DNA from: Polynucleobacter sp. JS-JIR-5-A7
Lineage (GTDB): Bacteria; Pseudomonadota; Gammaproteobacteria; Burkholderiales; Burkholderiaceae
Length of the DNA stretch: 32,000 nt
Direction: 5' to 3'
Assembly: GCF_018687935.1 (NCBI RefSeq)
Contig: NZ_CP061308.1
Span: 2,115,031 to 2,147,030, forward strand
Shown: positions 6,735 through 25,075 of the stretch, one piece after another
Layout of the letters: each line of letters starts with the position of its first letter
How positions within the stretch are numbered: the stretch's first letter is position 1
The notes under the pieces: model-generated
What the model was told of the DNA's origin: nothing
Seen by the model: the letters and a program-made list of their open reading frames with translations, nothing else
Databases searched by the model: none
Made by a program: the position numbers and the translations under genes

Positions 6735-6749
6735 GTCCTTTTAAAGGAC
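6735..6749. repeat. P-box palindrome GTCCTTTTAAAGGAC, copy 1 (left-extended: catgaacTGTCC...)
   Basis: Exact 15-mer, 8 nt upstream (plus strand) of the stop of the aquaporin gene at 6757. Confidence 0.9.
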
Positions 6750-6756
6750 ATTGCCT

Positions 6757-7428
6757 CTATAAACCTCTTGTATAGCTCTTGTTATCTTTTGGCTCAACTA
6801 GAGCAAGAATTCCAACAACCAATAATGCCGCAATGACCTCAGCCACAACAAATCCTAAAACATCATTAGGAGCAATGCCCACAAAGGTATTGGTTAAGCT
6901 CCTTGCTACTGCTACTGCTGGATTGCTAAAGAAGGTAGAGGAAGTAAACCAGTAGCCTGCTGTCACTGCCAAAGCAACTAACATTGGAACCTTATCTTTA
7001 GCCTCTTTATCTCCAATGTGTATTACTGAGAGCAATACGAGTGTTGATACAAGCTCACTCACCCAAATACCTAATCCTGTTCTGACTTTGGTTGATTCTT
7101 GAATAATGGGCAAGCTGAACATTAAATGGGTGAGCCATATTCCAGCAATAGCGCCTGTGAACTGGCAAACCCAATAGCCCAACATCTTTTTTAGATTGAG
7201 ATGTCCTAACTTCCAAAACATCAATGTGACAACTGGATTAAAGTGGGCGCCAGAGATGGGTCCGAGCAAAACAATTAAAGCGTAGAGTCCTGCGCCTGTA
7301 GCAATGCTATTACCAAGTAAGGCAACTGCGGCGTTGCCTGCTCCCAATGATTCACCCATAAAGCCAGACCCCGCCACTATTGCTAATAGCAGGGCTGTGC
7401 CCACAAACTCACTTACATAACTTTTCAT
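6757..7428 (-). CDS. aqpS: MIP-family aquaglyceroporin in the ars operon (AqpS-like arsenite channel)
   Basis: 223 aa and hydrophobic. Two NPx boxes (HFNPVVTL and FSNPAVAVAR). The ATGA overlap with the arsC stop indicates translational coupling. Confidence 0.8.
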   Translation of the reverse strand: MKSYVSEFVGTALLLAIVAGSGFMGESLGAGNAAVALLGNSIATGAGLYALIVLLGPISGAHFNPVVTLMFWKLGHLNLKKMLGYWVCQFTGAIAGIWLTHLMFSLPIIQESTKVRTGLGIWVSELVSTLVLLSVIHIGDKEAKDKVPMLVALAVTAGYWFTSSTFFSNPAVAVARSLTNTFVGIAPNDVLGFVVAEVIAALLVVGILALVEPKDNKSYTRGL

Positions 7429-7904
7429 GCTTTTGTATGAATCTCTTTTAGGCTCATTGAATCTAATTTGTCTAAAGGCATAGATGCCAAGATATCGATA
7501 CGCTTTTTCAAACCAATCATCACATCCTTAAATGCTTTGCGTTTTTCTTCATCACCACCTTGAACTTGTGATGGATCAGGAAAGCCCCAGTGAGCTGTAG
7601 AAGGTTTGCCAGGCCAAAATGGGCATACTTCACCCGCGGCATTATCACAAACAGTAATAATGAAATCCATTTGTGGAGCATCAGGCAAGCCATACTCATC
7701 CCATGACTTAGAGCGCAACTTATTCTCGTCGTAGCCCATCTCTAAGGCTAACTCTCTAGCAAAAGGATTAACAGATGTACCTGGGGTAGAGCCAGCTGAG
7801 TAACCAACAAACTTACCACTTAGATGGGTTGATGCTAATGCTTCACCCAATACAGAGCGGGCGGAGTTATGGGTACACAAAAAGAGAATGTTGTATTGCT
7901 TCAT
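7425..7904 (-). CDS. arsC: arsenate reductase, LMW-PTPase/thioredoxin-coupled type
   Basis: Start reset to MKQYNILFLCTHNSARS (ATG 7904-7902), overlapping the arsR TGA (7903-7901). CX5R(S) P-loop, plus the downstream Cys pair VCDNAAGEVC. Confidence 0.9.
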   Translation of the reverse strand: MKQYNILFLCTHNSARSVLGEALASTHLSGKFVGYSAGSTPGTSVNPFARELALEMGYDENKLRSKSWDEYGLPDAPQMDFIITVCDNAAGEVCPFWPGKPSTAHWGFPDPSQVQGGDEEKRKAFKDVMIGLKKRIDILASMPLDKLDSMSLKEIHTKA

Positions 7905-8230
7905 TTGATTTTGGCTTTCTTGAGGGGTTTGATGGGAAGGCAAGACTTACCGCCACAGCAGTTATCTAATAAAAATTCACTTAACTTTTGAACTTGCTCG
8001 GCATTAGGTCTATAGATGAGATTACGACTTTGACGCTCTACCAATAAAAGCTCGGCATCCACTAAATCTTTTAGGTGAAAACTGAGGGTGGCATTGGGGA
8101 TGCCAAGTTTTTCAATAATTTGACTTGGAGTTAACCCAAGGTCACCACGCTGAACAATGAGGCGAAACACATTAAGTCGGGTTTCTTGCCCTAGAGCGAG
8201 GAAAGCAGAGATAGCGTTATCATTATTCAT
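7901..8230 (-). CDS. arsR: ArsR/SmtB-family metalloregulator
   Basis: 109 aa. Winged-HTH region (QETRLNVFRLIV...TPSQIIEKLGIPNATLSFHLKDL). C-terminal Cys cluster DNCCGGKSC. First gene of arsR-arsC-aqp. Confidence 0.9.
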   Translation of the reverse strand: MNNDNAISAFLALGQETRLNVFRLIVQRGDLGLTPSQIIEKLGIPNATLSFHLKDLVDAELLLVERQSRNLIYRPNAEQVQKLSEFLLDNCCGGKSCLPIKPLKKAKIK

Positions 8231-8252
8231 ATTTCGAATTATATGGAAATAT
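8229..8252. promoter_or_regulatory. candidate ArsR operator in the divergent arsR/arsH intergenic region
   Basis: Inverted repeat ATATTTC-n10-GAAATAT within the 93-bp AT-rich gap between the arsR start (8230) and the arsH start (8324). Confidence 0.3.
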
Positions 8253-8323
8253 ATGACAGTTTTATGAAATCTCGTTTCTAATAGACTCTCTTAATAATTT
8301 CACCTTTAAATTAGTATTCATCC

Positions 8324-9034
8324 ATGACTGATCTACCCAATATCGATAAAGCCCTATTTCATAAGCCAAGTCTTGATGAATTAACCATCAACTCCATTGA
8401 TAGTCACCCACCTAAGATTTTGCTTTTATATGGATCACTTAGAGAGAGGTCATTTAGTCGCCTTCTGGCAGAAGAAGCAGAAAGAATATTAAAAGCGATG
8501 GGCTGTGAAACGCGATTCTTTAATCCTCATGGATTGCCGCAAGTGGATGACGCTCCTGAAACACATCCCAAAGTAGTAGAGCTAAGAGAGTTAGTTCAAT
8601 GGGCAGAAGGAATGGTGTGGAGCAGTCCTGAGCGACACGGAGCTATGACAGGACTAATGAAATCGCAGATTGATTGGATCCCACTTAGCGTTGGCGCTGT
8701 CAGACCCTCTCAAGGCAAGACTCTTGCTTTATTACAAGTGAGCGGTGGTTCGCAATCTTTTAATGCTCTCAATCAAATGCGAATTCTAGGTAGATGGATG
8801 AGGATGATCACAATTCCAAATCAATCGTCAGTGCCCAAAGCATTTCTAGAGTTTGAGGATAACAATCGCATGAAACCTTCGGCCAATTACGATCGAGTAG
8901 TTGATGTCATGGAAGAGCTGGTTAAATTTACTTTGCTAACTAGGTCAGTTTCAAGCTATTTGACTGATCGCTACAGTGAGCGAAAAGAAAGTGCTGAGGA
9001 ATTATCAAAGCGGGTTAATCAAAGAGCTATTTGA
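8324..9034 (+). CDS. arsH: arsenical resistance protein ArsH (NADPH-dependent FMN reductase)
   Basis: 236 aa with [22 protein letters not shown] and [22 protein letters not shown], typical ArsH blocks. Divergent from arsR. Confidence 0.9.
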
Positions 9035-9040
9035 TTGAGT

Positions 9041-9103
9041 TGTCGTTTAAAACGACATCGACTGATGCAAGGATGAATAATTGACGTGTCCTTTTAAAGG
9101 ACA
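9041..9103. repeat. bipartite repeat, copy 1: H1 palindrome TGTCGTTTAAAACGACA + linker atcgactgatgcaaggatgaataat + P-box copy 2 (9088-9102)
   Basis: Aligns with 19742-19804 and, more loosely, with 25004-25075. Begins 7 nt after the arsH stop. Confidence 0.9.
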
Positions 9104-9304
9104 AATTAAAACCATCCTCGCAATACCTCTCATCCCCACTAACAAGCGATTTCCTTTTCCAATAAAAACCGCCAAAAAACCCTTGAATTTGGGTCAAATC
9201 GCCTGATTGTCAGAATAAGAATTATTACGAATACGAGGTGGGGTTAGATTAGATCACCAGGGGCCGAGATCTCCACTGGCCTTGAAAATTGCGCGGTAAT
9301 TTTT

Positions 9305-9685
9305 TTAGGGCTTACTACTGATCGGCTTGATAGTTTGTTGATGATGCTGGCGATCCTTTTCCAGCTTTAGTTGTTGTTTGGCTGAATCCACATTTCTCTT
9401 AAGAGAAGCTACTCTTGCCTGCTTGAGATTCAGTGGCTTAGTGGGTTTAATCATTTTGATAGCCTCACCTAAAGACAAGGTATCTTTATCTTCAGATAGG
9501 CTGGGAGCTGACACCAAACTATTCATACCAAATTGATATTGCAGAATCAGCCGCGCATGGATCTGACTATCGGCAAATACAGCTGTTTTAACTTGATGAC
9601 CATTGATACGGACAAGGGCTTGATATTTGTTCATACAAATATTTATAGTCTCGGCGCCCCTCGGGTCTTTTAAATCATGTCGCAT
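9305..9685 (-). CDS. hypothetical protein (start possibly at 9634, MNKYQALVRING)
   Basis: 126-aa ORF with no recognisable motif. It is the only ORF between P-box copies 2 and 3. Confidence 0.4.
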   Translation of the reverse strand: MRHDLKDPRGAETINICMNKYQALVRINGHQVKTAVFADSQIHARLILQYQFGMNSLVSAPSLSEDKDTLSLGEAIKMIKPTKPLNLKQARVASLKRNVDSAKQQLKLEKDRQHHQQTIKPISSKP

Positions 9686-9897
9686 TCGGCTCTTTGCCAG
9701 CTGGCTCGCCTCTGCGATGGGGGCTTCAGCCCACCCATCTTTTCCAAAACGTGCACCACGTGGTGCTGGAAAATGATGGTCTTCTCTGTCCTAAGCGCAC
9801 CAGCTGGTGCAGGACATTCGTCTTAGGCTTCGCTGGATCGGTGGCGACAGCCCTCGCCACCTATGGGGCTACCTTGCGGTGCGCCCCATATATAAAT

Positions 9898-9912
9898 GTC
9901 CTTTAAAAGGAC
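9898..9912. repeat. P-box palindrome GTCCTTTAAAAGGAC, copy 3
   Basis: Exact 15-mer with central A, 6 nt from the stop (9918-9920) of the 145-aa ORF. Confidence 0.9.
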
Positions 9913-9917
9913 AAACT

Positions 9918-10355
9918 TCAACGACCAAAGCCCGCACGTACAGCGCCGCTTGCGGCTTCTATTTGTGTGTCAAGCTCGCCTGCTTCTACGGCCACCTTAA
10001 TAATCTCTAGGGCTTTAATTAGCTCATCTGCTGAATTCACCTCAACAGCAGTCTTGCCTTTAGCGAACTCAATAATCTTGGCGCCGTAGCGGATGTTTAA
10101 GCAAACCTTGCCATCCATAGCAACGAACCACCATTGACGAATACGCTTTTCATGTTCAATGGTTTTACGTGCGCCAGTAATGTCTTTAACTGTTTTGAAT
10201 TTCTTAACAGTAAACGTACCGCCTTCTTTGCTGGCTTTAGCTAACTGGATCTGCTCCCACACTTTATTCGCTAATTTATTCCTGCGATGTAGTACTGGTG
10301 GAATTGCTGTTGGCTTTTTTGAATTAACCATTTTCAAACTGTTTAATGTGCTCAT
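9918..10355 (-). CDS. hypothetical protein, 145 aa
   Basis: Clean ORF with plausible composition (RIRQWWFVAMDGKVCLNIRYGAKIIEFAKGKTAVEV). No family recognised with confidence. Confidence 0.5.
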   Translation of the reverse strand: MSTLNSLKMVNSKKPTAIPPVLHRRNKLANKVWEQIQLAKASKEGGTFTVKKFKTVKDITGARKTIEHEKRIRQWWFVAMDGKVCLNIRYGAKIIEFAKGKTAVEVNSADELIKALEIIKVAVEAGELDTQIEAASGAVRAGFGR

Positions 10356-11094
10356 CTTTTTCTCCTATAAGTGAATGGGCACACTTAATTTATTGTCAGA
10401 GTTTTTGGATGGACAACCTCTTTTTGCCAAAAGCCACAAAGATCTAATAAATTTGCCAATAATGCGCCTTCTTTTATTAGGTTTCACTAAATAACTATGA
10501 CGACAAAACAGAAGAACGTTTTGTATGCCATTACATTACTACCGAAACAAGAGCAGTGACACTCAGTCGTTATGTCACCCTAAAGCTGGACTAGGAGTCA
10601 CAGTCATGGAAATTCTGGGCGGTAGCAGAGACTTAATTCACTATCCTTAACCGGACGCCATTAGCCTTGCTGACTAATATGAATCAAGTATACGAATTAG
10701 CACAAAGATCGTAGAACATTGTTTTACGGATCACGAGAAAGCCCTGCTTACACAGCAACTTTCAAACAAGACAAGGGTAGCCACTTATTGCTTTTGTCAT
10801 TGTTGCGTTTCAAGCCGCACATAAAAGGAGACAGCGAAACCGCCCTTCCCAAACTGGTTGTGCCCATAAGTGGTGTAGTAAAGAACTCAGCGAAAGTCCT
10901 TTTCTATTACTGAGCCTGTTGCTTAAGGCTCAGTGTAGGTTGAATCTAGCGAAAGTCCATCAAACAACATCAGATCAGCATTAGAGAAGAAGAAATGTGA
11001 TGAGCGACAAGCGAAATCACAGGGGAACGTAGTTCGCCTTTACTCAATAACAACTATCAAAATTTATATTAAAGTATTGAAAAAGGAGGGAATT

Positions 11095-11871
11095 ATGCAA
11101 ATACAAAATGGTTCACCAAAAGTAATGCAATTATTAAATCGTCTAGAAAGTGAAGGCACTTTAGTTAATTTGTATTCAAAGGATTTCTTTGATAAGAATC
11201 AGCGGGGACCAGCAATCTTTCTAGAAGAATTCGAAAGAATGATTGAAATTGAGAATGGAGCAAATGATGACTATGGAGATACAAAATTTCCGCTTGGTCA
11301 CCTATTAGTTATATGCACCTCTCTTTTAAGCCCTGAGGATATAAAGTTATTGAGGGATTTGTATTCCCCATTACAAAATGTATTAAGAGATGGTATTCAT
11401 CATCCTAATTTTTTATTTTTTAACTTATACACAAAGCAAATTCTTTCAGTTGGTCTTGGTAGAAAGAATCGCTTATTTTGTATTGATGTTGATTCCAATA
11501 AAAGTATAGATCCTACTTATTTGATCGTAGGTTCTGACGACTTTAACTATATCCAAAAGTTTACAGAGCATGATGTCATTGACTTTGTGTCAGAGGACTT
11601 AATTGGCTCTCTTCATGCAATGGGTCTATCATTTTTTGAACAAGATCATTTACCCTTCATTCATGATCTTCATGATTTACTAGACACCGAACCTAATGAG
11701 GATGGCATTTACGAACTTGAAGGATACGATGATGGTGTCTCTGCTCAAGAGGTAAAGGACATGATTAAAGAGTATGAAGATCATCAAGAAATCATCAACA
11801 ACCAATTACAAATACTTCAGTCTTTTTTTCCTGAGCTTACGGAAGGCGATTTAAATACTGGTGATTATTAA
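11095..11871 (+). CDS. hypothetical acidic protein, 258 aa, AT-rich gene
   Basis: ATG at 11095 is preceded by AAGGAGGG at optimal spacing; the track start at 11077 is TTG. No motif recognised. A terminator follows. Confidence 0.6.
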   Translation: MQIQNGSPKVMQLLNRLESEGTLVNLYSKDFFDKNQRGPAIFLEEFERMIEIENGANDDYGDTKFPLGHLLVICTSLLSPEDIKLLRDLYSPLQNVLRDGIHHPNFLFFNLYTKQILSVGLGRKNRLFCIDVDSNKSIDPTYLIVGSDDFNYIQKFTEHDVIDFVSEDLIGSLHAMGLSFFEQDHLPFIHDLHDLLDTEPNEDGIYELEGYDDGVSAQEVKDMIKEYEDHQEIINNQLQILQSFFPELTEGDLNTGDY

Positions 11872-11895
11872 TTTCTGTTGTCAAAATGCCACGAT

Positions 11896-11929
11896 AAATA
11901 TAAGAGAACAGTACTACTCTTATATTTTT
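11896..11929 (+). terminator. rho-independent terminator
   Basis: AAATATAAGAG-n10-CTCTTATATTT followed by TT, 25 nt after the stop at 11871. Confidence 0.55.
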
Positions 11930-12040
11930 GCCTAACTCATTGATAAAACAGCGGTTCTTTTTCAGCCATTTTCGGTTGCCCAAACCGAATCTAAGAAAAC
12001 ATACTGTAACTCTGTATTTAATACATTTCAGGGAGAACGT

Positions 12041-12607
12041 ATGTCACAAGCTAGAGTTTTAAATCCACAAGAGCTACGCAGAGTTTTAGATCACGTTGCT
12101 ACACGTAGGCATTCAGCACGTAATCGCGCTATGTTGCTACTAACGCACTACGCGGGTATGCGAGTAGCTGAAGTAGCCGCGCTACGCATAAACGACGTTT
12201 TAAACGGCGACAGTAGTATTAAGGGCGAAGTACGCTTAATGCCCGATCAAACCAAGGGCAAACATGCTCGTACTGTTTACTTAAATGAACGTATGCAAAA
12301 GGAGCTGGCGCAGTACATCAAAGCAATCAAAATCAAAGATGTAACTAAACCCTTGTTTTACACGCAGAAGCAAGCTGGGTTCTCAGCTAACTCACTTACC
12401 CAATACTTCTTTTATCTATATCGCTCTGTAGGGCTAGAGGGTGCCAGTAGCCATAGCGGTAGACGCACATTCTTAACTGGACTTGCCAATAAAGGTACGG
12501 CGATACATATATTGAAGTCTCTTGCAGGACATAGAAATATCAGCACTACTGCAACCTATCTCTATAGCAGTCCAGATCAGCTTAAGGCCGCTGTTGAGTT
12601 AATCTAA
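12041..12607 (+). CDS. small tyrosine recombinase, catalytic domain only (FimB/FimE-sized, 188 aa)
   Basis: ARNRAMLLLTHYAGMRVAEVAALRINDV (Arg box), SSHSGRRTF (HxxR) and LAGHRNISTTATYLY (His...Tyr nucleophile). There is no N-terminal core-binding domain. Confidence 0.8.
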   Translation: MSQARVLNPQELRRVLDHVATRRHSARNRAMLLLTHYAGMRVAEVAALRINDVLNGDSSIKGEVRLMPDQTKGKHARTVYLNERMQKELAQYIKAIKIKDVTKPLFYTQKQAGFSANSLTQYFFYLYRSVGLEGASSHSGRRTFLTGLANKGTAIHILKSLAGHRNISTTATYLYSSPDQLKAAVELI

Positions 12608-12610
12608 TTT

Positions 12611-12625
12611 GTCCTTTTGAAGGAC
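12611..12625. repeat. P-box variant GTCCTTTTGAAGGAC, copy 4 (right-extended: ...GGACggctcatg)
   Basis: One mismatch from the consensus. It fills most of the 21-nt gap between the convergent stops at 12605-12607 and 12629-12631. Confidence 0.85.
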
Positions 12626-12628
12626 GGC

Positions 12629-13357
12629 TCATGCAACTGGAAATTGACCTGTGGATGAATTATCAATCCTTGTCTTTGCTTGCTTGATATACCTTCCGAC
12701 TGTTGCCGCCAAACGATTACGCTTAACGAGCCTATCTGCGTAATCGTCTTTAGGATTAGGCATAGAGTCTTTATCCAATAGACCCATTTCTGCGCCAATC
12801 TCCCACAACTTTAATTTATTGGTGCCCAATCTTGTTTCCATATAACGGTCATAGACTTGTAGACACAGCCTCAAGTTTGCAATCGTATAAGTTCCATTGA
12901 GCGGATATCTGGCTGTAGTCTTGCTCACAGTTTTAGATGGGCGACCTTTCTTTCTGCCGTGGCGCTCCATCAGCAACTCATTGAAATACTTCTTTAGTGA
13001 CTTCTTATCGTAAGTGAGTGGCACCTGTAAAAAGATGAAGTCATCTTTACTCCATTGATCAGGCACTTCGTCTTTCCCATCTATCTCTTTAAATTTGTAG
13101 ATGGACATTTGCTCTGCAAATAATTCAACCCCTTTGGCTCGCCACCAAACTCTAAATTCATCATCGCGCACATCACCAAAGTCTGCATATAGCTTGGAGT
13201 ACTTGCCCTTGCCGCCTTTTTCACAAGTCGCCAAATAGTCTTTATTGCGGCGCAAGTACGCCCACCACCAGTAATAAGGGCTCTGCTCCTGCCTAGACAA
13301 GGGCTGTCTATTGTTTTTAGTGCCAAAAGTTGGGTACGGCTCAAAGAATTTGACCAT
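12629..13357 (-). CDS. hypothetical protein with a WWWAYLRRNKDY motif (possibly DUF6499-like, ICE/plasmid-associated)
   Basis: 242-aa ORF. The aromatic-LRRNxxY block recalls the W(A)WE(F)LRRNPxY signature as I remember it. Low-certainty family call. Confidence 0.5.
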   Translation of the reverse strand: MVKFFEPYPTFGTKNNRQPLSRQEQSPYYWWWAYLRRNKDYLATCEKGGKGKYSKLYADFGDVRDDEFRVWWRAKGVELFAEQMSIYKFKEIDGKDEVPDQWSKDDFIFLQVPLTYDKKSLKKYFNELLMERHGRKKGRPSKTVSKTTARYPLNGTYTIANLRLCLQVYDRYMETRLGTNKLKLWEIGAEMGLLDKDSMPNPKDDYADRLVKRNRLAATVGRYIKQAKTRIDNSSTGQFPVA

Positions 13358-13493
13358 TTTCTTAACATCCTAAATAGATCATTTCTGTATGGATTATCGA
13401 ATTTTAACCCAAACGAATAAATTAGATACATGGCCAAGCGGTTAAATTTCTTAACAAGCAGTCATATTTCTTAATACAGAAAGAGAGTTAAAA

Positions 13494-14276: not shown

Positions 14277-14294
14277 TTAATCAAGGGGAATGTT

Positions 14295-15014: not shown

Positions 15015-15023
15015 GGGTGAAAT

Positions 15024-16632: not shown

Positions 16633-16650
16633 ATTATTGAGACTTAATCG

Positions 16651-16677
16651 AAAAAAACCACCCCGGAGGGTGGTTTT
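16651..16677 (-). terminator. rho-independent terminator of pstS
   Basis: CCACCC-cgga-GGGTGG, flanked by A7 on the plus strand (a T7 run on the minus strand), 21 nt after the pstS stop. Confidence 0.75.
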
Positions 16678-16697
16678 GATTACCAAAATTAAGTAGA

Positions 16698-17735: not shown

Positions 17736-17818
17736 AAAAAATCCTTATTAAATTAAAAATACATAACATTGCACCCCAAAGTGAAGCCCCTTGGAGTTTT
17801 AAAAATTGAAAACGTGAT

Positions 17819-18160: not shown

Positions 18161-18270
18161 TTGCTGACACTCTAGTTTGGATAAATGACAGTTATATGAC
18201 AATAGATGCCAATTTAGCTACACCTCTAACCATCCAAAGCAAAATATCGGGATTTTTTAATTCATACATC

Positions 18271-18297
18271 AGAACCGTCCTTTAAAAGGACGGTTCT
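18271..18297. repeat. P-box copy 8 embedded in a perfect 27-bp palindrome AGAACCGTCCTTTAAAAGGACGGTTCT
   Basis: 13-bp arms around a central A. It lies 14 nt after the stop of the zinc-ribbon gene (18311) and about 110 nt upstream of paralogue C. Confidence 0.9.
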
Positions 18298-18310
18298 TAA
18301 ATACCCATTC

Positions 18311-18619
18311 CTACCAGCCTCCTGATCGATGCTGAGCCCCTATGTGGTTTCCGGTTGCTCGCATATGATTTTTGCAATAAGGACAAGTGATACCGTCCCA
18401 TGGCTCCAAATAATCCCCTGAACCACAAGCTCTACATAAGGGCTTAAAGGGAAGCTCAGCACTAATGCTCTCTGAATTGGGAACGGTATAGGTATCGATC
18501 AAGGCGCATGAGCTACAAGTCATGGCTACCTCAGAGGAGCGAGGACCAAGCTCGGTACCAATACCACTAATGCATTCATATTTACAAGATTTACATAAAA
18601 ATTTGTACTTGGTCGCCAT
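18311..18619 (-). CDS. four-CxxC zinc-ribbon protein, 102 aa (copy 2)
   Basis: CKSC, CSSC, CRAC and CPYC pairs. Roughly half the residues match the ORF at 21457-21765 when aligned by eye. No signal peptide. Confidence 0.7.
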   Translation of the reverse strand: MATKYKFLCKSCKYECISGIGTELGPRSSEVAMTCSSCALIDTYTVPNSESISAELPFKPLCRACGSGDYLEPWDGITCPYCKNHMRATGNHIGAQHRSGGW

Positions 18620-18622
18620 AGA

Positions 18623-19141
18623 TTAACTCCCTTGATAGTCTTTCATGACCTCAGTCCACTTGTCGTTGGTGTAATGCAACCGCATTTGTCGCTCTTGATT
18701 GGCAACGCCAATGGTAATTTTTTTATTGACTAGGTCGCTATAAACATCGTCTACTTTAGAGTAGTAATACTCAAAAACTGCGACCATTTCTGGCTTTGGA
18801 AATTCCTTAGCAATGCCACGACATTGCATTGTTTCTTCCTTAAATTGTTTGAGTTCCATAGCCTGCTGATCAGTAATGAATTCTGTTGAACTCAATAACT
18901 TTTTTGCATTGGGATTATTGGGCAAAATAATGATGATGTTGGCATTCACATCTTTCGCATCATCCTTAGCATTTACTTGGGCAATACAACTAATCATTTT
19001 TTTTCGAACCGTCTCTACTTGTTTTTGTATTGCGTCTTTACTCTCAATGGTTGCCATAGTATTACTAGATTTATTGCTGGCACAACCGGCTAACATCAGG
19101 GTCGAAAGACAAATTCCTCTAAATAACTTTTTCATAATCAT
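18623..19141 (-). CDS. lipoprotein, unknown family (copy 2)
   Basis: Lipobox LMLAGC. Shares KKITIGVANQERQ and its overall layout with 21778-22299. The start may be MKKLF at 19135. Confidence 0.7.
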   Translation of the reverse strand: MIMKKLFRGICLSTLMLAGCASNKSSNTMATIESKDAIQKQVETVRKKMISCIAQVNAKDDAKDVNANIIIILPNNPNAKKLLSSTEFITDQQAMELKQFKEETMQCRGIAKEFPKPEMVAVFEYYYSKVDDVYSDLVNKKITIGVANQERQMRLHYTNDKWTEVMKDYQGS

Positions 19142-19167
19142 TTCCTAATAATGGGTCGTCTGAAGGT

Positions 19168-19275
19168 TTAGTGATAAACAATGTCAGCACGATAGTTTTC
19201 TTTAAATACCGCTTCTGTCTAAGATAGGTTGGCTGGCTTTTCTTTTCCATAGCTCACGGCTTTAAGCTGAGCATG
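19168..19275 (-). pseudogene. internally deleted remnant of a Pal/OmpA-like gene
   Basis: 19168-19272 aligns well by eye, with scattered mismatches, with the last roughly 105 nt of 22317-22808. 19273-19300 aligns with the start codon and upstream region at 22806-22835. About 0.4 kb of the middle is missing. Confidence 0.65.
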
Positions 19276-19357
19276 GTGGGGTTTCCCAAACATAGCTAAA
19301 CGTTAGTAGCTATATGGCAAATGAAAACGCCACTATGACAAACCGAACCTAAAAATA

Positions 19358-19711
19358 TTAGGCTGTAGCTTTGGGTGGTTTAAACGCTGAGTCAGGAAAG
19401 TTTTGCGAAAACAAAACTTTATTTGCTATAGCAAATTGAATTGGGGTCTTGGGTAGGGAAAAAACGGTTATTCCAGCCTCGCTAATGTTTGCAGTCACAT
19501 GACTCATTAGATGCATGGTGTGAACCTGATGCTTATCGGTGAATGACCCAGCACTCTCATACGACTGCTGTGAGATTGGTACATTGGCATAAGAGCTATC
19601 AATCTGCGCTCGCTCTATTGCGGCTTGAATAAAAATACTTCCAGCGGCCAGCTTAAATGCGATCATGAAGAGGCAAATGAATAAAACGAGTGTTTTACTA
19701 CGAGGCAACAT
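19358..19711 (-). CDS. small secreted protein, FKPP(R/K) C-terminal family, paralogue A
   Basis: 117 aa. The N-terminal 36 aa and C-terminal roughly 20 aa are almost identical to 22895-23248, while the centre is diverged. Ends SAFKPPKATA. Confidence 0.65.
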   Translation of the reverse strand: MLPRSKTLVLFICLFMIAFKLAAGSIFIQAAIERAQIDSSYANVPISQQSYESAGSFTDKHQVHTMHLMSHVTANISEAGITVFSLPKTPIQFAIANKVLFSQNFPDSAFKPPKATA

Positions 19712-19741
19712 GGTTCAAATTCTATACCTGATTACTAAATT

Positions 19742-19804
19742 TGTCGTTTTAAATGACATCGACTGACGCAGGGATGAATAATGGATTTGTCCTTTTAAAG
19801 GACA
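19742..19804. repeat. bipartite repeat, copy 2: H1 variant TGTCGTTTTAAATGACA + linker atcgactgacgcagggatgaataat + P-box copy 9 (19789-19803, right-extended ...GGACagttcatg)
   Basis: Aligns with 9041-9103. The H1 part sits about 30 nt upstream of the start of paralogue A. Confidence 0.9.
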
Positions 19805-19889
19805 GTTCATGATGGGGGGATGTGAACGGCAACTGTAAACTATGTGGTCGGTACCGGACGTAAAGCATGTGTCCGGTACGTACCCGGTG

Positions 19890-19920
19890 TTTCTTGGTGG
19901 CCCGGGGCGGAATCGAACCA
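19890..19920 (-). repeat. 31-nt direct repeat of the tRNA-Phe 3' end and flank (att-like site)
   Basis: tttcttggtggcccggggcggaatcgaacca is identical to 25832-25862. The next roughly 35 nt (…ccctagactac) resemble the sequence that follows the 25159 copy. Confidence 0.75.
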
Positions 19921-19955
19921 GGGCCGAGAATGTCTGACTCTAGCCCTAGACTACT

Positions 19956-20267
19956 TTACCTATAGCCCAATACATCGTCTTGAGTTCTCTTTTGCCCCTC
20001 AAGGAATAGCTTAGTACATATCCCAGCGCCACTATGAAAACTTTGTTTTTTAGAGTCGACTTGCATTTGATACAAGGTATCAAAGCAATCCCTTCGATTA
20101 ACGAACTTGAAGCTCTCTGTGTGGGTTTGCTTACCCTTGTAAAAATGAAAGAAATCTAAAGTCCAATACTTGTCGCCTTGAGCGGTTACAGTGGCTTGCT
20201 CTTTTTTAAGGGGTTCAGCACAAGAGCATAAGGCCATAACTAAAATGAGAATTATTAGTTTTTTCAT
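19956..20267 (-). CDS. small lipoprotein, 103 aa
   Basis: MKKLIILILVMALCSC lipobox. Its start lies 2 nt after the stop of the FGE-like gene. Confidence 0.6.
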   Translation of the reverse strand: MKKLIILILVMALCSCAEPLKKEQATVTAQGDKYWTLDFFHFYKGKQTHTESFKFVNRRDCFDTLYQMQVDSKKQSFHSGAGICTKLFLEGQKRTQDDVLGYR

Positions 20268-20269
20268 TA

Positions 20270-21194
20270 TTAGTCTTCTAATACTAACCTCATGCCTGCC
20301 AAGACATAACGCGACTCTGGCGTATTCACATTTCTAAAAGAAGATCGACAGTACAAAGGCCATGAGTGCCAAGAACCTCCTCTCCTTACTCTCGCTTCAC
20401 CAATATTGGGGCCCTGTGGGTCTATGGTTGGTGCGTATTGATAATAATTTTCAGCATACCAATCAGAACACCACTCCCATACGTTCCCGATCATGTCATA
20501 TAGAGCAAATGGGTTAGGAAGAAAACTGCCAACGGGAGCCGAAAATTCGTAGTGACTATGATATTCAAGAGCGTATTTTTGCCACTGCGGCCAAATCTCT
20601 ACTGAATCTAAGTCAAACACATTGGCATATGAAATCAGCGTAGTTGGATCGTCGCCGGTAAAGAACCTACTATTCGTACCCGCTCTGCAGGCATATTCCC
20701 ACTCGGCTTCAGTTGGTAGTCGATACTTTTTTCCCTCTTTCTCACTTAACCACTTAGCCATAGCATTGGCATCATTCCAAGTAATGTTCACCACTGGAAA
20801 ATCATCCGCTTGGTTAAAACCCGTTTTATCCCACGCATACTGACTATTGCGACCTTCAAAAACTTCATCATCAATAGTCTTTAAATGGGCATCAATTGGA
20901 TTGAACCCATATCCACCAGTACCGTCTCGAATCGATTCAGGCATGTATCCAGAGTGGGTTAAAAAATAACTCAAACTGCTTAACCGTGACTGGGTACTGT
21001 CCCATCCAAAATGGCTTAGTAATTATTGCCTTGTGTAGTGGGCTTTCATCATGAAATTCAGAGAGCCGAGTTAACTCATACTGAGGAAAGTCTTGTCTTA
21101 ATGAATTTTCTGTTTCATTACTGCCCATTAAAAAACTTCCAGCAGGAATATAAGCAAAACTCATAGCAATACTATTTTGTAAGGTCTTCATCAT
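20270..21194 (-). pseudogene. formylglycine-generating-enzyme (FGE/SUMF1) family gene with a 1-nt frameshift in a homopolymer
   Basis: ORFs 20937-21194 and 20270-20974 are in different frames. Removing one base of the A6 run at 20961-20966 gives VTVKQFELFLTHSGYMPES. FGE blocks present: RLPTEAEWEYACRAG, GNVWEWCSDWY and RVRRGGSW. Confidence 0.8.
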
Positions 21195-21201
21195 TGAGAT
21201 A

Positions 21202-21444
21202 TCAAACAGCTGATTTCTTTATAAGCAAGTTAGCCAATTGATCGATAACTTCTGACCATTCCGAATCATCGGCTTTGGCTTCAATTAAAAAAGTCTTTTG
21301 CTCTGGATCCCAATAAATGGCATTTTCCAAAATAGAGCCTGGCTGTAATTGATGCCTTTCTATAAATCGTTCCATGTGAATCTTTTGGGATGACAATCCT
21401 AACTGCTCAAAAAGCTCTTCCAAAGTTCTATTGTTCATACTCAT
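21202..21444 (-). CDS. DUF2789-like small protein, 80 aa
   Basis: LEELFEQLGLSSQKIHMERFIERHQL...YWDPEQKTFL...DDSEWSEVIDQLN matches my memory of the DUF2789 pattern. Confidence 0.65.
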   Translation of the reverse strand: MSMNNRTLEELFEQLGLSSQKIHMERFIERHQLQPGSILENAIYWDPEQKTFLIEAKADDSEWSEVIDQLANLLIKKSAV

Positions 21445-21456
21445 TGGAATTCTCCT

Positions 21457-21765
21457 TCACCAGTACTTAAAGCGAGATCTCTCAACATCAACATCTGGGC
21501 CTATAGCCCGCATCTTCATCTGACAATGTGGGCAGGTAAGCCCATCCCACTCCGCCAAATGTTTGCTAGAGAGGCAACTTGTACAAGCAGGTGAAATACT
21601 AATTTCTGTATTAATACTACCTGGGTGAGCAACCGTATATAAATCAATGGTTGCACAAGATTTACAGGCCATAACCACTCTAGAAGAGTGAAGCCCCGCC
21701 TCTCTACCAATACCACTGATGCATTCAAACTTACAAGAGCCACAAATAAATTTATATCTAGCCAT
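21457..21765 (-). CDS. four-CxxC zinc-ribbon protein, 102 aa (copy 1)
   Basis: CGSC, CKSC, CTSC and CPHC pairs. Paralogue of 18311-18619. Confidence 0.7.
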   Translation of the reverse strand: MARYKFICGSCKFECISGIGREAGLHSSRVVMACKSCATIDLYTVAHPGSINTEISISPACTSCLSSKHLAEWDGLTCPHCQMKMRAIGPDVDVERSRFKYW

Positions 21766-21777
21766 AAATCTATCGCA

Positions 21778-22299
21778 CTAATTCTTTTTAGATTGAATAT
21801 CTAGACGCTTCATGCGAGCATCTTGAATCAGTAATTGCCTTTCTTGATTAGCAACTCCGATAGTGATTTTTTTAGAAATGAGATCTGCATAAACGCCATC
21901 GATTTTTTTAAAGAACTCCTGATACACCGAAATCATCTCGGGACTTAATTCCTCTAGCGCAATAGGACGACAAGAATTAGCTTCAAGCAAGTAATTAGCT
22001 AATGCCTTAGCCTGTTGATCAGTTAATTTATCGGCTGAATTAAAGAGGGCTTGTGCATGCGGATTGTTCCTTGTAACAACGATGATCTGACTATCCACCA
22101 ACAATGCATCTGCACTTTGATTACTGTTAACAATACAGTCATTAAGACGCTTAGCCACAGCACCAGTATGAACTGGGGCTATTGCAGTCATTGGTGCCGG
22201 CGCTTTAGCAACTTGTACTGGGTTATTGGGGGCAAAGTTTGTCGCACATCCACTTAAGAAAGCAATGCCTATCAAACTTAGTTTGAATATGTTTTTCAT
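21778..22299 (-). CDS. lipoprotein, unknown family (copy 1)
   Basis: Lipobox FLSGC. Paralogue of 18623-19141. Confidence 0.7.
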   Translation of the reverse strand: MKNIFKLSLIGIAFLSGCATNFAPNNPVQVAKAPAPMTAIAPVHTGAVAKRLNDCIVNSNQSADALLVDSQIIVVTRNNPHAQALFNSADKLTDQQAKALANYLLEANSCRPIALEELSPEMISVYQEFFKKIDGVYADLISKKITIGVANQERQLLIQDARMKRLDIQSKKN

Positions 22300-22316
22300 T
22301 GAATAGCCTTTGAAGT

Positions 22317-22808
22317 TTAGCGATACACAAAATCAGCGCGGCGGTTTTCTTTAAATGCCGCTTCAGTTTGCGCTGGGTCAGCTGGCTTTTCTTTGCCAAA
22401 GCTCACTGCCTCTAGTTGAGACTCACTAACACCTTGAGAAACAAGCGCTTTCTTAACAGCTTCGGATCGCTTTTGGCCCAAGGCTAAGTTGTACTCAGCG
22501 GTTCCACGATCATCGGTATTACCTTGAATAATGACGGATGCCTTTTGCCTTTGAAATGCTTTCAAGTACGAAGCATGGGCAGAGATAGTAGAGGCATATT
22601 TTGGATCTAATGTATAGCTATCAAACTCAAAATAGATAGAACGCTTGCCATAAACGCTAGACTTAGAATCGCTGATTGGATCATACGACATTGAGCCGCC
22701 AGCGTTGATAGTAGCAACACTATTAGCATCATCTAACTTAACGCTACTACAGGCGGAAACAAATAAAACCAATAATGCCAATGGCAATATTTTTATAAAC
22801 TTAAACAT
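22317..22808 (-). CDS. peptidoglycan-associated lipoprotein (Pal/OmpA C-terminal domain)
   Basis: Start reset to MFKFIKILPLALLVLFVSAC (lipobox). OmpA_C blocks: IYFEFDSYTL, GNTDDRGTAEYNLALGQKRSEAV and ENRRADFVY. Confidence 0.85.
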   Translation of the reverse strand: MFKFIKILPLALLVLFVSACSSVKLDDANSVATINAGGSMSYDPISDSKSSVYGKRSIYFEFDSYTLDPKYASTISAHASYLKAFQRQKASVIIQGNTDDRGTAEYNLALGQKRSEAVKKALVSQGVSESQLEAVSFGKEKPADPAQTEAAFKENRRADFVYR

Positions 22809-22894
22809 GATGGAATTTCCCAAATACGGCTGAATAGGCTCAGCCATGCTATCAATAGGATTGATCTTATTTAGACCAATCCCAACCAAGTAAA

Positions 22895-23248
22895 TTAGGT
22901 GTTAGCTTTGGGTGGTTTAAATGCTGAGTCGGGGAAATTTTGCGAAAACAAAACTTCATTAACGATAGAGAACGAAGCCACTGCAATCGATGGAGAGAAA
23001 ACGGTAATTTCAATTTCGCTAATATTAGCTGTTACATGGCTCATGAGGTACATGGTATGAACCTGCTCTTTGTCGTCAGCTGAGTCAGAGCTATTATGTG
23101 CTTGCTGTGACATTGAAGCATTGCTGTAGCTACCAGCAAGTTCTGCCCGCTCTATTGCGACTTGAATAAAAATACTTCCAGCGGCCACCTTAAATGCGAT
23201 CATGAAGAGGCAAATGAATAAAACGAGTGTTTTACTACGAGGCAACAT
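22895..23248 (-). CDS. small secreted protein, FKPP(R/K) C-terminal family, paralogue B
   Basis: 117 aa. See 19358-19711. Ends SAFKPPKANT. First gene of a tight minus-strand operon running to 19956. Confidence 0.65.
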   Translation of the reverse strand: MLPRSKTLVLFICLFMIAFKVAAGSIFIQVAIERAELAGSYSNASMSQQAHNSSDSADDKEQVHTMYLMSHVTANISEIEITVFSPSIAVASFSIVNEVLFSQNFPDSAFKPPKANT

Positions 23249-23278
23249 GGCTCAAATTCTATACCCGATTACTAAATT

Positions 23279-23295
23279 TGTCGTTTAAAACGACA
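23279..23295. promoter_or_regulatory. H1 palindrome TGTCGTTTAAAACGACA upstream of paralogue B (candidate operator overlapping a -35-like element)
   Basis: Same position relative to the start codon as the H1 copy upstream of paralogue A. On the minus strand ACGACA-n18-TAGAAT lies just before the ATG. Confidence 0.4.
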
Positions 23296-23343
23296 TTACA
23301 AGCACCAACCCTTAATCAGAAGCCTTTAAAAGATGCTTACTGT

Positions 23344-23655
23344 CTACTTCCTATTAGCCCCATAAGTCTTATTAAGGTAGTCGACTATGACTGGAACTTC
23401 CTCATCAGTAATAGGTGCCTTAAATACATTTTTCATCCTTAAAACTTGGGCATTCCAATAGCCAACTCCCGTATTGGGCGGTTGATATTCTGCATAGTGG
23501 GCAGAGTGACAGGTAGAGCATTTCTGTAAAGTCAGCTGATAGCCTGGCAAATCTGATGGCCTCCATAAAACAGTATCAGCTGGCAACTCAATCGTTTTAG
23601 CTTGTGCCATTTGTGCCAAAGCAAGAGCAGATAGAAGGAGGATAATTTTTTTCAT
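23344..23655 (-). CDS. sorB: monohaem cytochrome c, SorB-like partner of sulfite dehydrogenase
   Basis: Start reset to MKKIILLLSALALAQMAQA (ATG 23655), preceded by AAGGAG. It has a signal peptide and a single CSTCH haem-binding motif. Confidence 0.8.
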   Translation of the reverse strand: MKKIILLLSALALAQMAQAKTIELPADTVLWRPSDLPGYQLTLQKCSTCHSAHYAEYQPPNTGVGYWNAQVLRMKNVFKAPITDEEVPVIVDYLNKTYGANRK

Positions 23656-23665
23656 ATTCTTCTCC

Positions 23666-24889
23666 TTAAACCGCTGTGACTTTAACAGTCTCAACAATAT
23701 TACGCATATAGCCAGCCGGCATCCAACTTGCGGTCATGGGCTGAACTTGGCCGGCATGATTAAATGCCCTAACCCTCAAGTCCAATGTCCCTTTTTGTTT
23801 TGGCGTAAATTCAATGCGCCACTCTCTAAATGAGAAACGACCCAGATCTTGGCCCAATCTTGCTTCTGTCCAATTTTGTCCATTGTCCTGAGAGAACAAA
23901 ACTTTCTTTATTCCATAGCCAGCATCAAAGGCAATGCCTCGAGCTTGAACGGGCTTACCAACAGTAACAACACTATTGTCTGTGAAGTTCGTAATGAAAG
24001 AGCGAATCGTAAATTGATTAATTGGAATCGTTTTAGAAGGGGCAGTTCCTGGCGCAACACAGTTACAGTCATTATCAGGAATGCGATAAGCAGGATTCAT
24101 CCAATAGCCGTTGTATACATCATCAACCACTTTAATTTCACTAAGATGTTTTACCCAATAAGTGCCGTAATAGCCAGGCACAATTAACTTGATTGGATAA
24201 CCATTTAAGAAAGGAATATCTGTTCCATTCATTTGATAGGCAACCATGACATTGCCATCCATGGCGTGATCAATATCTAAGCCTTTTACGAAATCTGAAT
24301 CACTTGGCAATACTGGCTGATCTAAGCCATCAAAGGTCACTTGCTTGGCGCCGCGACCAGGATTGGCCGCCTTCAAAATATCCTTTAAGGCAACGCCAAC
24401 CCAAGCGGCATTACCCATCGCACCATTACCAAGTTGACCACCATTCACTCTAGGTTCAAACAAGCCACGACTGTTACCAGAGCATTGATTAACAGCAACA
24501 ATGCGTTGAGATGGAAAGTTTTTCTTTAAAGACTCTAGGGAGATCTCCAAAGGCTTTTCTACATTGCCGCCAACTTTTAATCTATAAGTATTAGGGTCAA
24601 TGGATGTTGGAATCCCGGCCATGTGATAACGCACAAAGAATTCATCGTTTGGCGTAATGACATGATTGTCGTAATACTTAAATGGGGTTTCTAATTGCGG
24701 CGGCCTAGAAGTCAATACAATCATGGGCTTCTTTTCAGGAAAGACCATGAGTTCGCGCTCACCATAGGCTATCGGTAAATTTATTTTCTCTGCTCCCATT
24801 GCCCAGGATGGCAATAATGAACTGGCTCCACCAGCCAAGGCCGCTGTAATGACTTTACGTCTATTGGTAAAGTTTTCTGAATTCATCAA
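23666..24889 (-). CDS. sorA: molybdopterin-dependent sulfite dehydrogenase catalytic subunit, SorA-like
   Basis: Twin-arginine signal NRRKVITAALAGGAS. Mo-ligand Cys context VNQCSGNSRG. Sulfite-oxidase-family size (407 aa), followed by the cytochrome c gene. Confidence 0.85.
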   Translation of the reverse strand: MMNSENFTNRRKVITAALAGGASSLLPSWAMGAEKINLPIAYGERELMVFPEKKPMIVLTSRPPQLETPFKYYDNHVITPNDEFFVRYHMAGIPTSIDPNTYRLKVGGNVEKPLEISLESLKKNFPSQRIVAVNQCSGNSRGLFEPRVNGGQLGNGAMGNAAWVGVALKDILKAANPGRGAKQVTFDGLDQPVLPSDSDFVKGLDIDHAMDGNVMVAYQMNGTDIPFLNGYPIKLIVPGYYGTYWVKHLSEIKVVDDVYNGYWMNPAYRIPDNDCNCVAPGTAPSKTIPINQFTIRSFITNFTDNSVVTVGKPVQARGIAFDAGYGIKKVLFSQDNGQNWTEARLGQDLGRFSFREWRIEFTPKQKGTLDLRVRAFNHAGQVQPMTASWMPAGYMRNIVETVKVTAV

Positions 24890-25003
24890 TGTCTCCTCCG
24901 CCCATAGCTATCTGGGCATCATGTTGATCTGGATCAATATAGCCCATAAATATAGAGCGTACGGGTAGGAGATACCCGCATAGACAGTGCCTTTATCACC
25001 AGC

Positions 25004-25075
25004 GTCGCTTAAATCGACACTTGACTGGCACAGGGATGAATCATCCCCCCCACACAACTGTCCTTTTAAAGGACA
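25004..25075. repeat. bipartite repeat, copy 3 (diverged): GTCGCTTAAATCGAC + linker acttgactggcacagggatgaatcat... + P-box copy 10 (25060-25074)
   Basis: The linker shares gactg.c.cagggatgaat with copies 1 and 2. The P-box is an exact 15-mer with flanks aacTGTCC...GGACAgct. Confidence 0.8.

Follow-up and report, generated by a model that had tools for sequence, protein, structure and literature searches.

Type-matched 15-bp palindromes as probable protein-recognition sites of modular, tRNA-integrating elements in Polynucleobacter

Polynucleobacter are among the most abundant freshwater bacteria, and their niche adaptation is thought to run via genomic islands; how cargo enters such islands is, to our knowledge, poorly understood. 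We analysed 32,000 nt of Polynucleobacter sp. JS-JIR-5-A7 (RefSeq assembly GCF_018687935.1, contig NZ_CP061308.1, positions 2,115,031 to 2,147,030; this whole stretch is called the window, and positions refer to it unless another locus is named), in which a 15-bp palindrome, pal1 (GTCCTTTWAAAGGAC), recurs through a block of accessory genes. Across a family of related elements, pal1 and its sister palindrome pal2 (GTCGTTTWAAACGAC) occupy recurrent positions and nearly always come as one type per backbone, and we conclude that they are probably protein-recognition sites of a modular element family that integrates at tRNA genes.

In the window, integrative elements stand in tandem at tRNA-Phe. 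The 3' part of the intact tRNA-Phe gene is repeated at 25131, 19886, 6437, 2515 and 1404, a signature of tandem integration by several elements at this one tRNA. The conserved chromosomal flank lies left of ~1490 and is matched by P. nymphae and another Polynucleobacter genome; window 284-1487 is matched by locus L084 (7455-7999) and by locus L118. The Rfam match to the Polynucleobacter-1 RNA and the best genome-scan matches likewise point to this genus. An earlier reading of the window from its sequence alone (the original prediction) had overlooked the tRNA-Phe array, its attachment (att) arms, pal2 and the pal2-pal1 composite, and also that five copies share one element backbone instead of separating unrelated segments. 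The landmarks of the array are:

25837-25912, minus strand: intact tRNA-Phe(GAA), the array's anchor and target of integration
25004-25226, plus strand: P' arm of the sorAB-carrying element, with a further palindrome variant, GTCGCTTAAATCGAC, at 25004-25018, a spacer, pal1 at 25060-25074, a flank and a tRNA-like att core at 25131-25226
19741-19956, plus strand: P' arm of the backbone-bearing element, with a pal2-like palindrome at 19743-19757, 31 nt, pal1 at 19789-19803, a flank of ~80 nt and a tRNA-like att core at 19886-19956
6437-6734, minus strand: tRNA-Phe 3' fragment (6437-6517, att core copy 'O') and a 217-nt P arm reaching to pal1
1404-2595, minus strand: tRNA-Phe 3' fragments 1404-1490 and 2515-2595, closing the array

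In these att arms pal1 stands on both sides of the tRNA core. Moving outward from the core, one side reads 80-90 nt, pal1, 31 nt and pal2, and the other 217-270 nt and pal1, with a sequence extension common to both arms and oriented toward the core on each side. The combination of pal1, a AGTTCATGCRYGGGGTACCCC arm and a tRNA-Phe 3' fragment was found again in loci L084, L114, L119 and L139, and an intact tRNA-Phe is present in 11 Polynucleobacter-type loci, 79-205 nt from pal1 in 10 of them.

A pattern search placed exact copies of pal1 at 6735, 9088, 9898, 13542, 15245, 16618, 18277, 19789 and 25060 (n=9), and a single one-mismatch copy (GTCCTTTTGAAGGAC) at 12611, the same coordinates as originally given. 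With up to two mismatches, 13 matches were observed vs 0.08 in shuffles, and none of them lies in 1-6700 or 25100-32000, so that the copies are confined to the accessory block as had been claimed. Three of the 13, each with two mismatches, are pal2, present as GTCGTTTAAAACGAC at 9042 and 23280 and, one base off, as GTCGTTTTAAATGAC at 19743. The palindromes outside the arms listed above, given without strand except for the composite, are:

6735-6749: exact pal1 where the P arm of the ars-carrying element has its inner end, the aquaporin stop codon lying 7 nt before it
9040-9103, plus strand: composite of pal2 (9042-9056), a 31-nt spacer with TCGACTGATGCAAGGATGA and pal1 (9088-9102), 8 nt past the arsH stop codon
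9898-9912: pal1, backbone site a, 5 nt from the DUF6641 stop codon
12611-12625: one-mismatch pal1 between the convergent stop codons of REC and p242, 3 nt from each
13542-13556: pal1, backbone site b, in p260 codons 17-21, encoding VLLKD in the disordered N-terminal tail
15245-15259: pal1, backbone site c, 9 nt past the integrase stop codon and directly after a canonical terminator (15214-15239)
16618-16632: pal1, backbone site d, 74 nt upstream of the integrase start
18277-18291: pal1 between two cargo blocks, within a 27-nt perfect palindrome, AGAACCGTCCTTTAAAAGGACGGTTCT (18271-18297)
23280-23294: exact pal2, 32 nt upstream of a 117-amino-acid (aa) gene

The 17-mer YGTCCTTTWAAAGGACR fits all nine exact pal1 copies, a one-sided extension RGYTCATG accompanies seven of the ten copies, and an arm motif, TCATCCCTGYGTCAGTC, is found on four copies in the window. 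Four pal1 copies belong to att arms and five to the conserved backbone of one element. As the original prediction had it, nine of the ten are non-coding, at the distances from stop codons that it gave, the exception being 13542 inside a 260-aa open reading frame (ORF). The arrangement of pal2, 31 nt and pal1 forms a composite of 61-64 nt that occurs twice, at 9040-9103 and 19741-19804, as direct repeats with 89% identity. The 12611 copy is kept in locus L001, and loci L005 and L065 have an additional gene on its left.

The backbone of the element comprises the following genes:

9305-16543: conserved element backbone, from the p55-like ORF to the integrase
9305-9685, minus strand: p55-like ORF
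9918-10355, minus strand: DUF6641
10551-10689, plus strand: Polynucleobacter-1 RNA (Rfam RF01718)
11077-11871, plus strand: p264, a variable-slot gene
12041-12607, plus strand: REC, a small tyrosine recombinase of 188 aa
12629-13357, minus strand: p242
13494-14276, plus strand: p260
14295-15014, plus strand: RFC-like AAA+ ATPase
between the AAA+ ATPase and the integrase: a 61-aa ORF
15269-16543, minus strand: integrase, 424 aa

Around it stand cargo blocks, among them an ars/aquaporin block of four genes on both strands (6757-9034) and others of 2-7 genes each, with a PstS-like protein, an FGE-sulfatase, an OmpA-family protein, and a molybdopterin oxidoreductase with a cytochrome c-like protein (the sorAB of the original prediction). 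The segments into which the palindromes had been said to divide the island are roughly right, except that the supposedly separate plasmid-like genes and integrase are a single backbone (9088-16632).

To see the palindromes in an unbiased setting, we used 80 loci kept of 152 relatives from lake and river metagenomes, which had been fetched via the REC protein and not via the palindrome (the REC set, 577 kb). These contain 58 exact pal1 and 91 exact pal2 copies, by far the commonest perfect palindromes in the set. The backbone order DUF6641, RNA, REC, p242, p260, AAA+ ATPase and integrase is conserved across the loci, and the palindromes occur at recurrent backbone positions, designated a, b, c, d and i. 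Site a, just past the DUF6641 stop codon (window 9898), holds pal1 in 8 loci and pal2 in 7. Site c lies just past the integrase stop codon, beside a terminator (window 15245), and site d ~75 nt upstream of the integrase start (window 16618), where in the window it sits between the pstS terminator (16654-16677) and an integrase promoter-like site (16603-16575). Site i is found only in elements of the pal2 type, 186 nt inside the integrase ORF (L238, at its position 6716, L241, L243-L248, L250, L253, L257 and L258); integrases of the pal1 type are without it. In 14 REC-bearing loci there is a third perfect palindrome, TGTATTnAATACA, with a single copy in each.

Site b lies in codons 16-20 of p260 across loci. 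Elements of the pal2 type hold pal2 there, so that the encoded peptide is VVLND instead of VLLKD, and the site stays perfect while its coding flanks are only ~50% identical; in the AlphaFold model, p260 residues 1-26 are disordered. Because the peptide varies with type, the flanks are so divergent and the tail is disordered, it is the DNA and not the protein that is conserved at this position.

The type of palindrome is likewise a property of the whole element. Backbones carried only pal1 in 24 loci and only pal2 in 25, and the two mixed loci are mixed only at site d; with one type per backbone, orthologous positions kilobases apart switch from C4/G12 to G4/C12 together. Other variants are also symmetric (GTCTTTTTAAAAGAC, GTCGTGTAACACGAC, GTCGATTAAATCGAC and a family with the centre CTTAAAT), and in the complete P. 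paneuropaeus genome (L264) a pal2-type element beside tRNA-Met has three hybrid sites, in each of which a GTCT half-site is paired with a GTCG one. Such hybrids would break a hairpin and only half weaken the site of a dimer, which favours a reading as duplex DNA. The central base flips between orthologous sites with no consequence or rearrangement. One type per element, symmetric variants, hybrids and the free centre together argue for duplex recognition by a symmetric, lineage-specific dimer. Of the roles first proposed for the palindrome, the recognition site of an island-encoded dimeric protein or recombinase is thus the best fit to the symmetric half-site variants, uniform types and fixed positions, and we hold it to be the probable one. 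In this model the site would consist of two 7-bp half-sites, GTC[C/G]TTT, around a freely flipping A/T pair, and its reader would be a dimeric, lineage-specific protein of a modular integrative element family found in tandem at tRNA-Phe in Polynucleobacter, with relatives in other freshwater Burkholderiales.

The palindromes belong to the element and are no feature of the host genome. Matches in a genome scan (17-mer, one genome per species, 8-kb chunks, with counts being lower bounds; at least 120 chunks) fell in two groups, Paenibacillus on the one hand and Polynucleobacter with freshwater Burkholderiales metagenome-assembled genomes (MAGs) on the other. Polynucleobacter and the freshwater Burkholderiales had one or two clustered chunks each among the matches listed, even on contigs of 1.7-3.2 Mb, with 1-3 sites per chunk. 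This distribution, along with zero copies in the core flanks of the window, argues against a repetitive extragenic palindromic (REP) element or bacterial interspersed mosaic element (BIME), and the same one or two clustered chunks per Polynucleobacter genome speak against an uptake signal, both of which had been among the roles first suggested. In viral contigs, a scan with the 15-mer returned 57 stretches, 56 of them with a single chance-level match and nothing related; the exception was an unrelated contig (L034) with two copies 45 bp apart. A megablast of 6000-26000 against a plasmid database gave zero matches. Paenibacillus genomes had many chunks each, at least 13 in one genome, and there (L064, L067, L070, L071, L074 and others) the pal1 15-mer is the apex of a ~45-nt long-hairpin repeat, gaaacggtacc-PAL-ggcaaagccgtttc; judging from its flanks, which are unrelated to those of the Polynucleobacter sites, this is a separate dispersed family resembling REP elements or miniature inverted-repeat transposable elements.

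Trees and type-specific residues were used to look for the protein that would read the site. The integrase tree fits the palindrome types best (one change), with 40 type-specific alignment columns; REC, p242 and the AAA+ ATPase have none, and p260 has four, two being the palindrome's own codons and another, column 152 (S/T vs K/R), separating both types. pal2 is also found with an integrase only 45% identical (L227, L228) and with an unrelated 332-aa integrase (L264), and the variable genes lying between DUF6641 and REC show no correspondence with palindrome type. REC is conserved more strongly than any other backbone protein; its alignment to XerA/XerC-like proteins covers their catalytic domain, with the catalytic residues conserved and the N-terminal core-binding domain missing. 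Neither p242 nor p260 has any match in Pfam, PHROG, NCBIfam or PDB sequences, and their AlphaFold models (predicted local distance difference test scores of 86.6 and 73.0) gave no PDB fold match (best Foldseek E = 1.3 and 0.32, respectively). The p242 family comprises 1264 clusters at 50% identity, and its relatives show sporadic sub-threshold matches only, to PF20109 and PF10074. No helix-turn-helix (HTH), ParB- or KorB-type protein was detected among the backbone proteins with Pfam, PHROG and NCBIfam, small or novel binders being possible.

The palindromes also coincide with the ends of genes and modules, as first proposed. At 44 of 123 non-duplicate sites in the REC set an ORF 3' end lies within 15 nt, compared with 2 for an ORF start that close, and sites in convergent vs divergent gaps number 20 vs 8 in the same set and 21 vs 5 in a palindrome-ascertained set. 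Cargo can be followed across such junctions. The same arsH stop codon occurs in four contexts, and in each the palindrome begins 2-6 nt later: pal2, the composite and a P' arm in L108; pal2, the composite and the backbone in the window; pal1 and the backbone in L115; and GTCGCTTAAATCGAC and other DNA in L209, with the DNA beyond the palindrome differing in three of the four. Since arsH meets different palindromes at one fixed nucleotide, cargo meets the palindrome type of its host element. Other comparisons, too, put palindromes at junctions. The window junction at 9088, with the arsH-composite of L108 joined straight to the backbone, has the form expected of L108 after loss of a P'-O-P att junction between two pal1 copies; L216 has 6.2 kb, including an att junction, between two CTTAAAT-type (pal4) copies, and the same flanks enclose just one copy in L213 and L234; a pal2/pal1 hybrid, GTCGTTTTAAAGGAC, stands where a composite is expected in L069 and L118; a 300-nt paralogous repeat (19458-19757 and 22995-23294) stops at the last base of pal2; and REC-bearing metagenome contigs end at 12611 and 13539. 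In pairs of sites similar on at least one 40-nt flank, one-sided homology at the palindrome was observed in 60%, vs 3-6% at anchors 80-135 nt away.

On these patterns we tentatively propose, ahead of the other functions considered below, that the palindrome functions as a joint used by the element's recombination machinery, a possibility to which we give less weight than to protein recognition as such. Cargo would be captured next to palindromes, and neighbouring tandem elements would be fused at palindromes via loss of the att junction; the agent would probably be the universally conserved, catalytic-domain-only REC, possibly guided by the neighbouring p242. A more specific version is distinctly doubtful: a cassette-capture system of a new kind for chromosomal islands, in which p242 or some other backbone protein would provide the specificity and direct REC to palindromes of several mutually exclusive 'compatibility types', so that cargo operons would be loaded into tRNA-integrating elements, neighbours fused by att-junction deletion and the islands of abundant freshwater bacteria thereby built.

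A number of results weigh against a joint. Palindrome-free ORF 3' ends lose downstream homology in 75% of cases vs 49% at palindromes, in a comparison that is ungapped, indel-sensitive and dominated by the REC family; because such ends break at least as often, the breaks lie between genes and are not palindrome-specific. The expectation that gene-content breakpoints fall at palindromes therefore holds when measured against nearby anchors (60% vs 3-6%), but not when measured against palindrome-free ORF ends, which break equally or more. No inverted segments of at least 300 bp were found among 84 loci, despite near-symmetric sites with both central bases, and no four-gamete reassortment of flanks was found. 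The central base, which flips without rearrangement, is thus not a directional overlap, and, with sites next to or within essential genes (integrase, p260), the element would not survive free recombination among them. At 17 bp the conserved site is short for the core of a tyrosine recombinase; in 35 loci the gene inserted after REC does not have a palindrome on each side; and REC has no residue by which the pal1 and pal2 types can be told apart. Free crossover within the palindrome is thus disfavoured, and a regulator or insulator reading stays alive.

That alternative, the main rival although we judge it rather unlikely, makes the palindrome an operator or boundary site of an element-encoded global regulator, on the pattern of KorB and its OB sites on IncP plasmids or of phage immunity types, whose dimer would repress or block the integrase and p260 from sites at or close to the 5' ends of these genes and block read-through at module ends and att arms; junctions would coincide with the sites only since both lie between genes. 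It would accommodate a perfect palindrome with an unconstrained central W, and the single type per element with concerted switching is what is seen in immunity groups. The positions are suggestive as well, with site d near the integrase promoter-like site, site b ~75 nt into the p260 transcript, site i inside the integrase ORF, and the pal2 half-site ACGACA serving as the -35-like hexamer of two 117-aa paralogues. The absence of inversions and the equal mosaicism of palindrome-free gene ends point the same way, and the faint PF20109 and PF10074 matches of p242 relatives are to regulator or DNA-binding domains. Yet the bias toward ORF 3' ends (44 vs 2) and convergent gaps is the opposite of that of operators, no HTH/ParB-type protein is detectable in the backbone, and a regulator leaves unexplained both the resident-type palindromes around new cargo and the three palindrome types that arsH meets at one nucleotide.

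We consider it quite improbable that the palindrome is an accessory site in the att arms at which an excisionase-like protein, an architectural protein or a host protein resembling Fis aids intasome assembly, with dispersed copies mostly as relics of collapsed att junctions. The arms themselves would suit this role: in five genomes the distance between pal1 and the tRNA 3' end is 79-91 nt, and pal1 stands at the inner ends of the two arms as mirror images, the extension RGTTCATG..GGGGWWWCCC being common to both; the arm motif is present on four window copies, and a similar layout is seen at att arms upstream of tRNA-Met in Comamonadaceae loci. pal1 also fits what we take to be the core features of a Fis site (G1, C15, Y4, R12 and an AT-rich centre), but pal2 violates the Y4/R12 rule. 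Sites a, b, c, d and i are conserved in position in intact backbones and are without the arm motif, so the backbone sites are not relics. Palindrome types that are uniform within elements yet coexist in one genus speak against a host factor, and pal2 occurs with three unrelated or distant integrases.

A function as RNA or as a single-stranded hairpin, whether to terminate weakly, to stabilise 3' ends or as a repeat of the REP kind, is very improbable. The association with ORF 3' ends, palindromic variants that resemble compensatory changes, three copies flagged in a lenient terminator scan and the Paenibacillus repeat with the 15-mer at its apex would be in keeping with it. As RNA, however, the palindrome folds into a hairpin of -5 to -8 kcal/mol with the T-run missing at most copies, and canonical terminators (-12 to -19 kcal/mol) stand immediately next to 15245, 16618 and copies in other loci, which rules out an intrinsic terminator and upholds the earlier view that these are not simple terminators. 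The recurrent half-site hybrids would disrupt the stem, a uniform type within an element is unexpected for mere structure, and the sites are not genome-wide; no REP-associated tyrosine transposase (RAYT; Y1/HUH) or IS200-type gene was found among 30 ORFs scanned in 6757-25735. A small ORF starting from an AAGGA-N6-ATG motif beside pal1 was also considered and dropped, the ATG varying across copies.

Least credible of all, by analogy with the dyad-symmetric lambda O sites in the O gene, is that the palindromes are iterons of a replication module with p260 as initiator and the RFC-like AAA+ protein as loader: site b does lie inside p260 in nearly all elements, p260 column 152 separates the types and p260 is directly upstream of a clamp-loader-like ATPase, but there is one copy at p260 with the others spread unclustered over 10-15 kb and in att arms, L241, L243 and L257 carry sites without p260, and the p260 fold matches no known initiator.

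Among known systems, the arrangement appears closest in kind, by analogy, to attC or pdif sites in a tycheposon-like setting. As with attC, short palindromic sites directly 3' of ORFs delimit accessory units with a tyrosine recombinase nearby, and the same cargo is joined to different neighbours at a fixed end. Unlike the 15-bp perfect palindromes of uniform type seen here, attC sites are 57-141 nt long, differ in sequence from one to the next, contain R''/L''/L'/R' boxes and take part in recombination as folded single strands; here, moreover, sites are also present in the backbone and att arms. attC boxes (RYYYAAC...GTTRRRY) were rejected, as the conserved unit is 15-17 bp and the composite ends, GTCGTTTAAAACGAC and GTCCTTTTAAAGGAC, lack GTTRRRY. 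Most integron cassettes hold one promoterless ORF and share an orientation, in contrast to the multi-gene modules in both orientations here, and a cassette array was accordingly ruled out by the four ars-block genes on both strands and the 2-7 genes of other blocks. IntI has a specific insertion, and neither recombinase scores as IntI: REC reaches 43.8 bits against TIGR02249 (cut-off 265) and 22.3 against NF011946 (cut-off 435), and the 424-aa integrase has no match.

The pdif sites of Acinetobacter plasmids resemble the palindromes in that conserved short sites bound modules in a mosaic mobile context, with a recombination role inferred comparatively. They are 28-bp dif-like XerC/XerD sites with asymmetric arms, served by host Xer, whereas the present sites have a 17-bp core and lie in a chromosomal tRNA island, on an element that encodes recombinases of its own. 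The 11-bp arms and 6-bp spacer of pdif can be excluded, information outside the 17-bp core not exceeding 0.6 bit on one side and ~1.3 bit on the opposite side, and a dif-like sequence is absent. KorB operators (OB) of IncP-1 offer another parallel, with about a dozen perfect short palindromes dispersed over one element, in promoters and far away; those are read by the dimeric element-encoded ParB-family protein KorB, no counterpart of which is detectable here, and unlike the palindromes described here they have no 3'-end preference and are not known as mosaic joints. REP elements and BIMEs share intergenic palindromes that prefer gene 3' ends, but REPs are imperfect, form stable hairpins and number hundreds genome-wide, in contrast to copies confined to mobile elements.

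Tycheposons are cargo elements of Prochlorococcus that target tRNA genes (bioRxiv 10.1101/2020.12.28.424599), and the paper describing them makes no mention of a repeated palindrome (bioRxiv 10.1101/2020.12.28.424599). Both groups are tyrosine-recombinase elements that sit one behind another at tRNA genes, leave partial tRNA repeats and bring nutrient cargo; tycheposons have small modules for integration and replication. The present array has the corresponding integration at tRNA-Phe with 3'-fragment repeats in tandem, and it encodes the integrase, REC, an RFC-like AAA+ protein and p260 (a replication role of p260 and the AAA+ protein being presumed) with ars, pstS and sorAB as cargo. The differences lie in host phylum and, apparently, hallmark genes, and the type-matched palindromes, second minimal recombinase and Polynucleobacter-1 RNA are particular to the present family. 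What distinguishes it from all of the above is perfect type-matched 15-bp palindromes at fixed backbone positions alongside a catalytic-domain-only recombinase.

In the literature searched, neither the exact palindrome sequences nor palindromes in Polynucleobacter islands were found described. The analysis yields a widespread element family with a searchable cis-signature in lineage-specific types and a fixed backbone that includes an orphan RNA and two tyrosine recombinases. If the palindromes are joints for cargo capture and fusion, the assembly of tRNA islands would gain a mechanism comparable to attC for integrons; if they are immunity-like operators, they would reveal a control circuit of tycheposon-like elements. 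Under either reading, the motif could be used to delimit modules in metagenomic island sequences.

Several further observations concern the backbone and its surroundings. The RF01718 RNA lies between DUF6641 and REC in eight of nine related loci scanned, and is carried by L185, L193, L238, L246, L250, L253, L258 and L264 as well as the window; as a constant part of the backbone, this orphan Rfam RNA is element-borne and not a host gene. Just upstream of p260, at 13440-13455, an inverted repeat, GGTTAAATTTCTTAAC, is kept in nearly all related loci of either palindrome type; it overlaps the likely -35 region and may be a separate operator. The two 117-aa genes (19358-19711 and 22895-23248) are paralogues with DNA ~80% identical (repeats compared: 19166-19757 and 22315-23294), each with pal2 32 nt upstream of its start and the ACGACA half-site paired with TAGAAT. 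In both composites a promoter-like pair (9052-9081 and 19753-19782, plus strand), whose -35 hexamer falls within pal2 and whose second half, AATAAT, falls within the 31-nt spacer, is directed through pal1 toward the att core.

Two genes in the array are split. The FGE-sulfatase gene (20270-21194, minus strand) is split into overlapping ORFs, 20270-20974 and 20937-21194, probably due to a frameshift. A second integrase (5120-6343, minus strand), which adjoins the tRNA fragment 6437-6517, is a probable pseudogene in two ORFs, 5120-5686 and 5690-6343, and its element (2596-6436) has zero palindromes. Between the intact tRNA-Phe and the next tRNA-like repeat, a BrnT/BrnA toxin-antitoxin pair (25221-25735, minus strand) makes up its own 0.6-kb unit, which is also present in L082 and L130.

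Possibly related arrangements are seen at another tRNA gene. In Comamonadaceae and Limnohabitans MAGs (L076 181-973, L113 1131-1422, L146, L161 and L163), pal1 stands 13 nt from GTCGTGTWAMACGAC, upstream of tRNA-Met, and in L076 a single ORF lies between duplicated copies of the GTCGTGTWAMACGAC-type arm and the core CCCAAACTTTATTCAAAAGT, in what looks, from its sequence, like a related small-cassette system. Finally, comparison of L264 (P. paneuropaeus, 11744-20708) with L265 (a related metagenome contig, 1981-7701) revealed different restriction-modification and defence sets in one slot, which is bounded by pal2 copies and has conserved outer flanks.

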